Source: an uncultured Acidobacteriota bacterium
GTDB lineage: Bacteria > Acidobacteriota > Thermoanaerobaculia > Multivoradales > SZUA-115
Direction: 5' to 3'
Assembly (NCBI GenBank): GCA_963805975.1
Contig: CAWDVR010000001.1
Span: 128,001 to 192,000, forward strand
DNA length: 64,000 nucleotides
A model generated the notes under the pieces. It was not told where the DNA came from. It saw only the letters and a program-made list of their open reading frames with translations, and searched no databases. Shown here piece by piece: positions 26,889 to 32,389 of this stretch (position 1 is the stretch's first letter; every line of letters begins with the position of its first letter). Made by a program: the position numbers and the translations under genes.

Positions 26889-28412
26889 CTACCTGAACAC
26901 CCTGAACCACGCCGCGAAGATCTTCTTCACCGTCGGAGTCAGCTTGGTGCGCCGCCAGGCGTCGGCGGCTTTCTTGATGACCTCGATCTCGGTGGGGTAG
27001 GGGTGGATCACGGAGGCGATCTTGCCCAGGCCGATGCGGTGGGTGACGGCGAGGTAGAGCTCGCCCAGAAGGTCACCGGCGTGGTCGGCCACCAGCGTGG
27101 CGCCGAGGATCCTGTCCTTGCCCTTCTCGAGGTGCAGGCGCAGGAACCCTTCGGTGTCGCCCTCGAGGAGGGCGCGGTCGACGCCGGCCATCGGGATGGT
27201 GAGCGTATCGACCTCGATGCCGCGCGCGCGGGCCTCCTTCTCGTAGAGGCCCACGTGGGCGACCTCCGGGCTGGTGTAGGTGCACCACGGCATCACCAGC
27301 CGGCTCGCCTTGCCGCGGCCGAAGAAAAAAGCGTTCTGGAGCACGAGGCGGGCCTGCGCGTCGGCGGCGTGGGTGAACTGGTGCTTCGAGGCCACGTCGC
27401 CGCAGGCGAAGATGCGCGGGTTGGTGGTGCGGAGCCGGTCGTCGACCAGGACGCCGCTCTTGCCGTACTCGACTCCCGCGGCCTCGAGCCCGAGGCCTTC
27501 GACGTTGGGCTTGCGGCCCACGGCGAGGAGGATCTCGTCCACGGTGATCTCGGTGCGGGCGCCGTCTTTTTCGACCCGCAGCACCTTGCCCTCCGCCCGC
27601 CGCTCGACGGCGGAGATCTCGACGCCCAGCGCGAGCTCGATGCCGTCGGCCACCAGCGCCGTCTCGACCACCGTGGCGGCGTCGGGGTCCTCGCGCACGA
27701 GGATCTGTGGCGCCACGTCGAGCAGCGTCACCCGGCTGCCGAAGCGCGCGAAAGCCTGCGCCAGCTCGCAGCCGATGGGCCCGGCGCCGATCACCGCCAG
27801 CCGCCGCGGCAGCTCGGTCAGCCCGAACACCGTCTCGTTGGTGAGGTAGCCGGCCGCGGCGAGGCCGGGCACGGGCAGGTCCGCGGCCCGTCCGCCGGCG
27901 GCGATCACCGCCCGCCGGAAGTGCAGGTGCTTGCCGTTCACCTCGACGCCGTCGGAGGCGATGAAGCGGCCCTCGCCCAGGAACACGTGCACTCCCAGGC
28001 CCGCGAAGCGGCGGGCGCTGTCGTGCACGCTGATCTCCGCTCGCAGGCGGCGCATGCGCTCCATGGCGGCGGCGAAGTCCCCGTCGCCGGAGGCCCGCGG
28101 CGCGCCGAAGCGCCCGGCGCCCGATCGCGCGTCGTGCCAGGCGCGGGCGGCGCGGATCACGCCCTTGGACGGCACGCAGCCGTAGTTCAGGCAGTCGCCG
28201 CCCAGGAGAGCGCGTTCGACGAGCGCCACCTTGGCGCCCAGGCCGGCGGCTCCAGCGGCCGACACCAGGCCGGCCGTGCCGCCGCCCACCACCACCAGGT
28301 GATAGCGCTCCAGGGGCTCGGGCTCGGCCCAGGCCGCGGGATGGACGTTGGCCAGCAGCCGCAGGTTGTGCTCGTCGGCCGGCGAGATTTCCGGGGCGGA
28401 GCTCTCAGGCAT
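26889..28412 (-). CDS. Mercuric-reductase-like pyridine nucleotide-disulfide oxidoreductase
   Basis: GGGTAG, GGDCLNYGCVPSK redox disulfide, GAGPIG, HPYPT; lacks the MerA C-terminal CC pair. Confidence 0.88.
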   Translation of the reverse strand: MPESSAPEISPADEHNLRLLANVHPAAWAEPEPLERYHLVVVGGGTAGLVSAAGAAGLGAKVALVERALLGGDCLNYGCVPSKGVIRAARAWHDARSGAGRFGAPRASGDGDFAAAMERMRRLRAEISVHDSARRFAGLGVHVFLGEGRFIASDGVEVNGKHLHFRRAVIAAGGRAADLPVPGLAAAGYLTNETVFGLTELPRRLAVIGAGPIGCELAQAFARFGSRVTLLDVAPQILVREDPDAATVVETALVADGIELALGVEISAVERRAEGKVLRVEKDGARTEITVDEILLAVGRKPNVEGLGLEAAGVEYGKSGVLVDDRLRTTNPRIFACGDVASKHQFTHAADAQARLVLQNAFFFGRGKASRLVMPWCTYTSPEVAHVGLYEKEARARGIEVDTLTIPMAGVDRALLEGDTEGFLRLHLEKGKDRILGATLVADHAGDLLGELYLAVTHRIGLGKIASVIHPYPTEIEVIKKAADAWRRTKLTPTVKKIFAAWFRVFR

Positions 28413-29130
28413 CGTTCTTCTCGCTCTCGGGCACCGCTCCCCGCAACGCGTTTCGCGCCAGGCGGGTGATGAGCGCCGTCACCACCACCAGCGCCACCAG
28501 CCCGACGGCCAGGAGCGCCCACTCCGCCGGGCTCTTGCCACCCTGGGCGGCTTCTTTGCCCACCATGCCGAGGTAGACGTAGAGCGCCGTTCCCGGCAGC
28601 ATGGCGAAGCCGGCGAGAAGGTAGGGCACGAAGCGGACGCTGGTGAGGCCGAGCGCGTAGTTGAGCAGGTTGAAGGGGAAGATCGGTGCCAGGCGGAGCA
28701 GGGCCACGATCTTCCCGCCCTCGGCGCCGACCGCGCGGTCGATGCTGCGAAAGCGGGGCTGCGCGGCGAGCCTCTTCTCCACCCAGGAGCGTGCGCCGTA
28801 GCGCGCGATGAGAAAGGCCGCCGCCGAGCCCAGGAACGCGCCGCAGAAGGCGTAGAGCGTGCCGCGCGCGAAGCCGAAGATCACGCCGGCGGCGAGCGTC
28901 AACGCCGAGCCGGGGATGAAGGCCACGGCGGCCACGGCATAGCCGGCGATGAAGGCAAGGGGCGCCCAGATCCCCAGCCCCTTCACCCAGGCCTCGAAGC
29001 GCGGCAGGACCTCGCCCGCGGCCTCACGGCCGAAGAGAATCAGGACCCCGAGCACCGCGACGGCCAGGGCCAGCTTGAGGAGGACCGCGGCGCGCGAGCG
29101 TGGAGGCGCCGGTCGGGCTCGAGCGTCCAT
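28405..29130 (-). CDS. TVP38/TMEM64 (DedA superfamily) membrane protein
   Basis: IPGSALTLAAG.IFG, LLRLAPIFPFNLLNYALGLT, PGT.LYVYLG. Confidence 0.92.
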   Translation of the reverse strand: MDARARPAPPRSRAAVLLKLALAVAVLGVLILFGREAAGEVLPRFEAWVKGLGIWAPLAFIAGYAVAAVAFIPGSALTLAAGVIFGFARGTLYAFCGAFLGSAAAFLIARYGARSWVEKRLAAQPRFRSIDRAVGAEGGKIVALLRLAPIFPFNLLNYALGLTSVRFVPYLLAGFAMLPGTALYVYLGMVGKEAAQGGKSPAEWALLAVGLVALVVVTALITRLARNALRGAVPESEKNDA

Positions 29131-29153
29131 GGCGGGCCCGTCTCGAAAGGCTC

Positions 29154-30737: not shown

Positions 30738-31281
30738 AGAGGGGCAGGCGGTCCATGGCGTCGGCGAGAGTCAGCGCCGCTTGGTCGCGGGCCGAGAGCA
30801 GGGGGAGGGCGATCGGCCAGACGATGCCGATCTCGGGGTCGTTCCAGGCGAGCGAGATCTCGTCGGCCGAGTCGTAGAAGTCCGTGCACTTGTACTCGAC
30901 CTCGGCCACGGCGGACAGCACACAGAAGCCGTGCGCGAAACCGGGCGGTACGTAGAGCTGGCTGAAGTCGTCGGCCGAGAGCGTGTAACCCACCCAGCGG
31001 CCGAAGGTGGGGGAGCCGCGCCGGATGTCCACCGCGACGTCGAAGATCTCGCCCACGACGGCCCGCACCAGCTTGCCCTGCGGCTTCCTGAGCTGCGCGT
31101 GCAGCCCGCGCAGCGTCCCCGCCGCCGAGCGCGAGTGGTTGTCCTGCACGAATGGCTCGGCGATGCCGCCGGCGCGGTACCTCTCGGCCTGGTAGGTCTC
31201 GAGAAAGAAACCGCGGGCGTCGCGAAACACGTCCGGCTCCACGAGGATTACGCCGGGCAGGTCGGTGGCTTGGAAGTTCAT
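30730..31281 (-). CDS. rfbC: dTDP-4-dehydrorhamnose 3,5-epimerase
   Basis: [33 protein letters not shown]. Confidence 0.95.
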
Positions 31282-31297
31282 AGGGTTCTCGCCGCGG

Positions 31298-32389
31298 TCA
31301 GCCGAGCCCGAGCCGCTGCCGCTGGTAGCCGCCGCTCTCGACGGCCTCCACCCAGTCGCGGTGCCCGAGGTACCAGCGCACGGTGGCGGCGAGGCCCGCC
31401 TCGAAGTCGTGCGCCGGCCGCCAGCCGAGCTCGCGCTCGATCTTGGCGGCGTCGATAGCGTAGCGCCGGTCGTGGCCGGGCCGGTCGGCGACGAAGGTCT
31501 TGAGCTGATGGTAGGAGGTGAGGCCGCGCGCGGCGAGCGCGGGGTTGGCGGCGGCCGGGAGCTCGCGCTCGACGAGGTCGCAGAGCATGGTGACGATCTC
31601 GAGGTTGGTGCGCTCGGCACCGCCCCCCAGGTTGTACTTCTCGCCGGGCTCTCCGGCTTCGAGCACGCGGAGCAGCCCCCGGCAGTGGTCCTCGACGAAG
31701 AGCCAGTCGCGCACGTTGCCGCCGTCGCCGTAGATCGGCAGCGGCTTGCCCTGCGCCGCGTTCAGGACCATCAGCGGGATCAGCTTCTCCGGGAACTGGT
31801 AGGGGCCGTAGTTGTTCGAGCAGTTGGTGGTGAGCACGGGCAGCCCGTAGGTCTCGCCATAGGCCCGCACCAGGTGGTCGGCCGCGGCTTTCGAGGCGGA
31901 GTAGGGCGAGCTCGGCGCATAGGGCGTGGTCTCGCTGAAGGCGCCGGTCGGCCCCAGGGAGCCATAGACCTCGTCGGTCGAGATGTGGAGGAAGCGGAAG
32001 GCCTCGCGAGCTTCCGCGCCGGCTGAGGCGAGATGGGCGCGCGCCGCTTCGAGCAGCTCGTAGGTGCCGACGATGTTGGTGTGGACGAAGGCGCCGGGGC
32101 CGTCGATCGAGCGGTCGACGTGGGTCTCGGCCGCGAAGTTGACCACCGCGCGCGGCCGGTGCTCGGCGAACAGGCGGCGCAGGGCGGTCGCGTCGGCGAT
32201 GTCGGCCTGGACGAAGGTGAAGCGCGTGTCGCCCTCGAAGTCGGCGAGATTTTCGAGGCTGCCGGCGTAGGTCAGCTTGTCGACGACGACGATCGAGACC
32301 GCCCGCTCGGCGAGCGCAAGGCGCACGAAGTTGCAGCCGATGAAGCCGGCGCCGCCGGTGACGATCCAGGTCGCATGGGCGTCCGCCAT
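31298..32389 (-). CDS. rfbB: dTDP-glucose 4,6-dehydratase
   Basis: [52 protein letters not shown]. Confidence 0.97.

Follow-up and report, generated by a model that had tools for sequence, protein, structure and literature searches.

DUF4301 as a probable GalU-analogous UDP-glucose pyrophosphorylase family in bacteria without galU

Introduction

The synthesis of glucuronate, galactose, glycolipids and surface glycans draws on UDP-glucose, whose standard bacterial source is the UTP:glucose-1-phosphate uridylyltransferase GalU (TIGR01099). Here we describe a protein of another family, DUF4301 (PF14134), encoded in a 64,000-nucleotide stretch of DNA (the window) from an uncultured Acidobacteriota bacterium, C1:128001-192000 of its genome (G000; 5.36 Mb, 96% complete, 6 contigs). 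The gene directly follows rfbB and rfbC of the dTDP-rhamnose pathway, and the original prediction regarded its product as a stand-in for RfbA. Our results point to a different product: we assign a probability of about 0.7 to the reading that DUF4301 is a GalU-analogous UDP-glucose pyrophosphorylase (UGPase) family in bacteria without galU, its sugar range being a prediction.

In the usual pyrophosphorylase reaction, the sugar phosphate attacks the alpha-phosphate of UTP in a Mg-dependent manner and pyrophosphate is released. GalU likely shares its reaction with DUF4301 but belongs to a different family (PF00483, ~290 aa). The eukaryote-type UGPase-A proteins (PF01704; 2I5K, yeast Ugp1p; 2ICX/2ICY, Arabidopsis; 2OEF/4M28, Leishmania; 3GUE, Trypanosoma; 4R7P, human) are closer: their N-terminal and catalytic domains superpose on the DUF4301 model (Z up to 25.5, ~330-345 residues, rmsd 3.3-4.0), and the PGGHG, N.DN, ESAQ, FN and FAPVKT motifs align. 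However, identity is only 15-18%, NGGLGT.MG is replaced by ASGAATRM, Lys256 has no equivalent, and DUF4301 has two helical insertions and stops at FAPVKT..DLL, hence without the C-terminal beta-helix. The fold is also shared with UAP/AGX1 (1JV1, 2YQC, 6TN3) and USP (3OH0), which rank below most UGPases; GlmU is usually still present in genomes with DUF4301. The nucleotide-binding-motif Arg and the PK lysine of DUF4301 align with bacterial UAP-like proteins, while eukaryotic UAP has Asn where the PGGHG motif of DUF4301 has His. RmlA/RfbA (TIGR01207, TIGR01208) resembles DUF4301 in its sugar-1-phosphate nucleotidyltransferase chemistry, predicted for the latter, and in its rmlB/rmlC neighbours, but is a separate gene in G000 and in nearly all other DUF4301 genomes. 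A precedent for a galU-less lineage relying on another UGPase family is CugP, the non-GalU UGPase of cyanobacteria (PMC7133116), although that protein combines an NTP_transferase domain with a beta-helix and is unrelated in sequence to DUF4301. Our literature search, with most subscription papers outside its scope, found DUF4301 mentioned once, in a single paper, no description of this function, no GalU substitute described in these lineages and nothing relevant on 8X7S or BT0701, two entries that figure below.

Results

DUF4301 is predicted to be a UDPGP-superfamily enzyme

The protein (P0001) matches PF14134 over its full length (554.8 bits, positions 3-507 of 507, over the gathering score). 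At E <= 0.1 this was its sole Pfam match, with none to PF01704, and no NCBIfam family was matched, including the GalU model. A PDB sequence search at E <= 10 returned nothing with either the single protein or a 144-sequence profile, and the ESM Atlas, with PF14134 clusters excluded, gave no usable match; the relationship was seen only by fold search. The AlphaFold2 model built on the 144-sequence alignment (mean pLDDT 95.8; helical insertions at ~94-171 and 314-386) has UGPase and UAP structures as its top Foldseek matches (E 1e-11, TM ~0.5). When compared by VIA-align, ranks 1-16 are all UGPases (Z 23.1-25.5; the best with rmsd 3.3 over 328 aligned residues), followed mostly by UAP (Z 20.6-23.1), then USP (19.3-20.0), the UGPase 3GUE (19.5) and GlmU (17.5). 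A profile of 10 bacterial UGPase-type proteins, which themselves match solved UGPases at E 1e-160, gave a weak but significant match to DUF4301 (probability 81.9, E 1.1e-5); that of 12 bacterial UAP-like proteins reached probability 55.

The motifs from which a likeness to eukaryote-type UDP-sugar pyrophosphorylases was first proposed are indeed present (ASGAATRM 85-92, RPGGHG 279-284, KNVDN 306-310), and the model and structure comparison extend this likeness to a shared fold and catalytic residues. In an alignment of 168 rows (P0001 and 167 locus reading frames, among them 4 duplicates and ~30 near-redundant Bacteroidales), K183, Q253, G282, H283, G284, D309, N310 and E422 are conserved in all 168, K515 in 167 and N444 in 166. 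According to PMC3270307, the substrate contacts in the Trypanosoma brucei UGPase (TbUGP)-UDP-glucose complex include Gln163, Gly191, His192, Glu281, Asn303 and Lys377; the predicted equivalents are Q253, G282, H283, E422, N444 and K515, respectively. K183 is predicted to be the nucleotide-binding-motif lysine, shifted ~90 residues downstream by a helical insertion. We consider the assignment of the modelled protein to the UDPGP superfamily well supported, substrates being something that the structure does not show. When clustered at 50% identity, the family counts 1,061 clusters or more (E <= 1e-30).

DUF4301 trades places with known or likely UDP-glucose-making enzymes

No galU match over the cut-off was found in G000, and at E <= 1e-30 none was found in any of the 41 genomes of its order, within the Thermoanaerobaculia; 7/14 controls matched. 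According to the genome-wide search, the sugar enzyme missing from this genome is GalU and not RfbA. DUF4301 is present in 37 of the 41 genomes. A 452-aa NTP-transferase, P0274, is encoded by every one of the remaining four and by no genome of the order with DUF4301. Its gene lies directly behind rfbC in G002, G003 and G006 and 1.9 kb behind rfbC in G032; in G002, uppP, dedA and the flavoprotein gene still surround the slot. This swap of DUF4301 for P0274 is seen in two families of the order. The best PDB match of P0274 is 8X7S, a UTP--glucose-1-phosphate uridylyltransferase (E 3.9e-33, nearly full length; next match 1.3e-16), which we take to be cyanobacterial CugP, a non-GalU UGPase. From this sequence link we infer that P0274 may be a UGPase. 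An orthologue in G187 is flanked by two UDP-glucose-dehydrogenase-like genes. G000 itself has a UDP-glucose-dehydrogenase-like gene (TIGR03026 over the cut-off; best equivalog, TuaD, below it), a likely consumer of UDP-glucose.

A similar pattern emerges from 161 Desulfobacterota genomes, a sample of the phylum to which a Desulfobacteraceae genome belongs. DUF4301 occurs in 42 of them and galU in 69, with 62 of the galU matches over the cut-off; the 34 genomes with PF01704 divide into 14 with strong UGPase-type and 20 with UAP-like proteins. DUF4301 co-occurs with galU in none and with PF01704 in none, where 18 and 9 genomes would be expected under independence; galU and PF01704 overlap in a single genome. 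Seventeen genomes have none of the three, such counts being upper bounds since glmU was likewise not found in about one-fifth of the genomes tested. P0274 was searched for in 80 genomes (the 4 + 37 of the order, these 17, and 22 of the 42 Desulfobacterota with DUF4301): it was found in 1/17 Desulfobacterota without another candidate and in 0/22 with DUF4301. A FastTree tree with midpoint root was built from 135 rows, after removal of 4 duplicates and 29 Bacteroidales sequences from the 168. In it, 30/31 sequences of the order form one clade, and Desulfobacterota DUF4301 falls into several groups, many of them weakly supported. Across the samples, galU was never found with DUF4301 (0/37 genomes of the order, 0/42 Desulfobacterota, 0/27 Bacteroidota).

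Two further families deserve a remark. The P0274 family (L229:112-1467 of G006, L228, L230, L240, L241) spans several phyla, with no fewer than 120 members that share 63% identity or more, and, judging by sequence, is a candidate non-cyanobacterial CugP-like UGPase. The UAP-like PF01704 proteins, with a PDGHGG motif, occur in 20 Desulfobacterota genomes (loci L203-L216), none of which has galU or DUF4301; this suggests that these proteins also make UDP-glucose.

The Bacteroidota look different. Among 161 genomes sampled from the phylum to which a Parabacteroides genome (G042) belongs, DUF4301 was found in 27, galU in none and PF01704 in one (weak). We therefore reject a phylum-wide role for DUF4301 as the GalU that Bacteroidota lack. 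The genes of Bacteroides finegoldii run panB, MFS transporter, relA, DUF4301. In B. thetaiotaomicron, panB corresponds to BT0698 and BT0699 encodes a sugar transporter; by gene order, BT0701 is then probably its DUF4301 gene. We also considered replacement of GalT in Bacteroides and found no support for it, galT itself not having been searched for: in PMC8121099 the single D-galactose row of Table S2 concerns another gene. PMC5583593 puts forward another family, GalY.

The dTDP-rhamnose pathway is split between two contigs

A long-form rmlA (TIGR01208, 467.5 bits, cut-off 320) lies at C2:1124764-1125834 of G000; rmlD comes immediately after it, and the pair spans C2:1123844-1125834; the short-form model TIGR01207 gave no match over its cut-off in this genome. 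The rmlD frame (C2:1123844-1124741) is broken in two by one frameshift near 1124412, which is probably a sequencing or assembly error, because in 5/5 relatives tested long rmlA is followed by an intact, over-cut-off rmlD. Thus, the pathway is split as rmlB-rmlC and rmlA-rmlD. The presence of this canonical pair on another contig, named beforehand as the outcome that would speak against DUF4301 replacing RfbA, undoes that part of the original prediction. Nor do rmlA and DUF4301 exclude each other phyletically: an RmlA-type match (E <= 1e-42) was found in 75/79 DUF4301 genomes (36/37 of the order, 39/42 Desulfobacterota). Of these matches, 42 exceed the long-form cut-off and the other 33 lie at E 1e-45 to 1e-72, with short-form identity confirmed for two.

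GlmU is usually retained

GlmU or its N-terminal domain was found in 32/37 DUF4301 genomes of the order and, among the Desulfobacterota tested, in 20/26 genomes with DUF4301 versus 19/23 with galU. This similar frequency led us to reject a general replacement of GlmU by DUF4301. A GlmU uridylyltransferase gave no match in G000, G001 and G004, nor in two genomes of 79-89% completeness. At G000 C5:472990-475817, yvcK ends 11 nt before glmS; in relatives, G017 among them, glmU occupies that place. G000 also has a stand-alone 225-aa beta-helix acetyltransferase-like gene at C3:419.6 kb, and G017, G027, G036, G002 and G006 have the N-terminal GlmU domain only. Another G000 locus (L012:1474-3389; C3:869 kb) encodes a 312-aa NTP-transferase without NCBIfam match followed by a kinase-like frame, possibly a sugar-salvage pair of the GalY/MurU kind.

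The locus and its neighbours

Open reading frame (ORF) coordinates and family profiles confirm five genes in a row on the minus strand and a divergent uppP:

31298-32389, minus: rfbB/rmlB, dTDP-glucose 4,6-dehydratase, 363 aa (TIGR01181, 482 bits, cut-off 365)
30730-31281, minus: rfbC/rmlC, dTDP-4-dehydrorhamnose 3,5-epimerase, 183 aa (TIGR01221, 238 bits, cut-off 156)
29154-30737, minus: DUF4301, 527 aa (P0001), predicted UDPGP-superfamily pyrophosphorylase (PF14134)
28405-29130, minus: VTT-domain DedA protein, 241 aa (PF09335), with COG0398 (TVP38/TMEM64)-type sequence features
26889-28412, minus: FAD-dependent pyridine nucleotide-disulfide oxidoreductase, 507 aa (NF004991, PRK06370, 756 bits, cut-off 620)
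32571-33374, plus, divergent from rfbB: uppP/bacA, undecaprenyl-diphosphate phosphatase (NF001393, 294 bits, cut-off 284)

The uppP start is inferred from the residue where homologue alignments begin, and the ORF list gives rfbB a second in-frame ATG at 32416. Both 8-nt overlaps noticed earlier are real, one between the rfbC stop and the DUF4301 start (30730-30737) and one between the dedA stop and the flavoprotein start (28405-28412); rfbB and rfbC are separated by 16 nt, DUF4301 and dedA by 23 nt. The flavoprotein scores under the MerA and lipoamide-dehydrogenase cut-offs. As originally stated, the window holds neither rfbA (0/7 genomic PF00483 matches fall inside it) nor rfbD (the sole TIGR01214 match there is rfbB itself). 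GC3 is 0.91-0.95 for all six genes, so none looks foreign, and in the closest named relative, a Thermoanaerobaculia genome, the proteins are 78% identical and the gene order is conserved. No sigma-70-type promoter was detected at the locus. Terminator-like sites (8 versus 1.7 expected) lie mostly inside opposite-strand genes and were not used. Judging by ORF translations, the operon faces a convergent histidine kinase and response regulator (24264-26881, plus) at its end; beyond uppP there is a PhoR/PhoB-like pair (33377-35864, minus), and glycine-cleavage-like genes follow at 36315-39158 (plus).

We counted neighbours up to ~7 kb from DUF4301 in 36 relatives from the order that carry the gene, some loci being clipped by contig ends; the second DUF4301 copy of G031, which has no such neighbours, was excluded. 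As predicted, the linkage to rfb genes recurs (rfbC 31, rfbB 30); uppP is found in 24, the flavoprotein in 17, dedA in 16, rmlA in 6 and rmlD in 0. This rfb-DUF4301 linkage exceeds chance. The dedA-flavoprotein pair is absent from 20/36 loci and, in several others, lies up to 4.6 kb off behind other genes. Outside the order, the counts over 78 loci are 2 for rfbC and rmlA, 1 for uppP, and 0 for dedA and the flavoprotein. We read the block as order-level gene order rather than a new recycling module.

Outside the order we scanned 139 neighbour frames (75 + 64), picked as nearest or most recurrent, ~12 of them not DUF4301 neighbours. A GT3 glycogen synthase gene lies immediately upstream of DUF4301 in Reichenbachiella (L033), and rmlA-rmlC lie downstream in two Elusimicrobiota; such scattered sugar genes fit a UDP-glucose role. 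In Bacteroidales a divergent relA stands beside DUF4301.

The family also varies in length. Several Bacteroidota frames are 700-780 aa long (L178-L181, L185, L186, L188), with ~190 extra N-terminal residues consistent with a fused N-terminal domain. In P0213 and P0221, DUF4301 is fused to a SpoIIE phosphatase domain, P0213 also having a receiver domain; the long members, which are fusions with response-regulator/SpoIIE domains or Pfam-unmatched regions, provide no substrate clue. At the other extreme, a ~450-aa DUF4301 missing parts of both helical insertions (L219 and L220 in G014 and G033, also G024) is a naturally minimal form; it is encoded in the gene series rfbB-rmlA-rfbC-DUF4301-dedA-flavoprotein.

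As to the DedA protein, residues 47-117 contain no D/E, and the second re-entrant motif, read by motif, has one Arg (R146). COG0586 (UptA-type) proteins are marked by acidic residues in the first re-entrant helix and by a pair of basic ones in the second; this DedA has none of the former and one of the latter. In PMC10127716, undecaprenyl-phosphate flipping is assigned to COG0586 and tied to those acidic residues, whereas COG0398 proteins, lacking them, are judged unlikely flippases and have pyridine nucleotide-disulfide oxidoreductases as their commonest fusion partner. Both the DedA motif and the oxidoreductase partner suggest the COG0398 type and not an undecaprenyl-phosphate flippase. The DedA-flavoprotein pair shares with COG0398 the VTT domain, re-entrant motifs without acidic residues and a PF07992+PF02852 partner, but consists of two coupled genes instead of one fusion protein. 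On the same published grounds, we do not uphold the carrier-recycling module that had been suggested for this locus.

Discussion

The original prediction that DUF4301 is a sugar-1-phosphate nucleotidyltransferase stands as regards the fold, the catalytic residues and the rfb linkage, but not as regards the role of RfbA, since rmlA lies elsewhere. A UDP-glucose role is favoured because DUF4301 trades places with known or likely UDP-glucose-making enzymes and because galU is missing. If so, DUF4301 would convert UTP and glucose-1-phosphate to UDP-glucose, doing the job of GalU, and the dTDP-glucose for rfbB-rfbC would come from rmlA on the other contig. By analogy with the UGPase complex described in PMC3270307, contacts to the pyrimidine ring would come from Q253 and G282, those to the phosphates from H283 and K515, and those to the sugar hydroxyls from E422 and N444. 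In the order, DUF4301 is inherited in a nucleotide-sugar block (uppP and rfbB-rfbC-DUF4301), and elsewhere as a stand-alone gene with changing neighbours; dedA-flavoprotein is a looser neighbour.

A number of observations weigh against this reading. The Z ranges of UGPases (23.1-25.5, one 19.5) and UAP (20.6-23.1) overlap, so the fold leaves the sugar unfixed. In the active site, Lys256 of the TbUGP substrate loop (KGG) has no counterpart, DUF4301 reading EPGGG at 401-405, and the nucleotide-binding motif ASGAATRM carries a UAP-type Arg. The C-terminal beta-helix, which PMC6329318 links to pyrophosphate binding, is absent: the last residue of DUF4301, 527, corresponds to positions ~367-417 in UGPase chains of 452-485 residues, and the model contains no such helix. 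The PF01704 search in the order covered 5 of the 41 genomes, and its control gave no match. Relatives of P0274, itself uncharacterised, are labelled 'NDP-sugar synthase' or 'mannose-1-phosphate guanylyltransferase' in databases. In Desulfobacterota, 16/161 genomes have none of the four families, P0274 included, and the Fisher values for the exclusion (4e-13 and 1e-5) overstate its significance, kin not being independent. In Bacteroidota, 133/161 genomes have neither DUF4301, galU nor PF01704 (P0274 was not searched there), so UDP-glucose must also come from elsewhere. The B. thetaiotaomicron gene, probably BT0701, is dispensable: PMC8121099 does not list BT0701 among the essential genes and gives it, in Table S2, an econazole phenotype and no other. 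Finally, neighbours outside the order are mostly non-sugar genes, with a few exceptions (glycogen synthase, galactokinase, GT2, epimerase, rmlA), and in Flavobacteriaceae DUF4301 sits behind pcrB-like, pnuC and NadR-type kinase genes (L045, L070, L074, L095, L098).

Which other roles could account for these data? DUF4301 might be a broad USP/UAP-like pyrophosphorylase that makes UDP-galactose and/or UDP-GlcNAc besides UDP-glucose, able to take on the work of GalT or of GlmU's uridylyltransferase half in addition to that of GalU. What keeps this idea alive is the distribution of glmU: G000, G001 and G004, which have DUF4301, gave no GlmU uridylyltransferase match, while G002, G003 and G006, which do not, keep the domain, and yvcK abuts glmS in G000 where G017 has glmU. 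UAP structures scoring nearly as high as UGPases agree with it, as does a galactokinase gene immediately upstream of DUF4301 in the Bacteroidia locus L042. We nevertheless consider it unlikely, given that most DUF4301 genomes of the order retain GlmU or its N-terminal domain, the frequency in Desulfobacterota is similar with DUF4301 and with galU, and in G000 UDP-GlcNAc could come from other, unassigned NTP-transferases; moreover, USP ranks lowest of the three structure types, the galactokinase neighbour is found at 1/78 loci, and BT0701 has no galactose phenotype listed in PMC8121099. Equally doubtful is the most far-reaching version, in which DUF4301 would be an undescribed, beta-helix-free bacterial class of the eukaryote-type fold from which galU-less lineages in four or more phyla obtain their UDP-glucose, with a range wide enough for UDP-GlcNAc as well, so that G000 and two relatives could lose glmU. 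A transfer of nucleotide to a phosphorylated metabolite other than glucose (e.g. a vitamin or riboside phosphate), with the galU exclusion reflecting lineage history, appears quite unlikely. It would suit the pnuC and NadR-type kinase genes that DUF4301 follows in the five Flavobacteriaceae loci, the ~190 extra N-terminal residues of several Bacteroidota frames, active-site loops unlike those of UGPase and the many Bacteroidota without any of the three candidate UGPases, but it leaves unexplained the 41/41 complementarity, the same-slot swap with a UGPase-like protein and the three-way exclusion in Desulfobacterota, where DUF4301 falls in several tree groups; the sugar-binding Glu and Asn of UGPase are also retained.

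The remaining two explanations take the neighbourhood at face value. One makes the whole block an envelope module in which DedA flips UppP-made undecaprenyl phosphate for glycans built from rfbB-rfbC-DUF4301 sugars. The recurrence of uppP, dedA and the flavoprotein gene near DUF4301 in the relatives (24, 16 and 17 of 36), the translational coupling of the latter two and a VTT gene adjoining DUF4301 in one Desulfobacterota locus (L143) speak for it; yet we find it very unlikely, as this DedA, without the acidic residues and with one of the two basic ones, has the COG0398 pattern described in PMC10127716, the dedA-flavoprotein pair is missing from more than half of the loci, distant in several and absent from all 78 outside the order, and uppP is divergent. 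The other is the replacement of RfbA, with DUF4301 making dTDP-glucose for rfbB-rfbC, which genome content largely refutes and which we regard as hardly tenable. The conserved Gln alone would not discriminate uracil from thymine, 4/79 DUF4301 genomes have no RmlA-type match, and DUF4301 stays near rfbC in 31/36 relatives. Against this stand the long rmlA and rmlD of G000, the intact pair in all five relatives tested and the RmlA-type matches in 36/37 genomes of the order and 39/42 Desulfobacterota. Short rmlA even lies in the same run as DUF4301 in 6/36 relatives and two Elusimicrobiota loci, and outside the order rml genes adjoin DUF4301 at 2/78 loci.

New here are the refutation by rmlA, the same-slot swap and the three-way exclusion. 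For all the pathways that depend on UDP-glucose, galU was found in 0/41 Thermoanaerobaculia and 0/161 Bacteroidota. If DUF4301 is indeed a GalU-analogous UGPase, it would fill the galU hole in most of the order and in about one-quarter of the Desulfobacterota sample, as a fourth solution beside GalU, CugP and UGPase-A. The chemistry itself would be familiar, but the eukaryote-type fold would then be able to work without its beta-helix, and the family would offer a compact enzyme for nucleotide-sugar synthesis.

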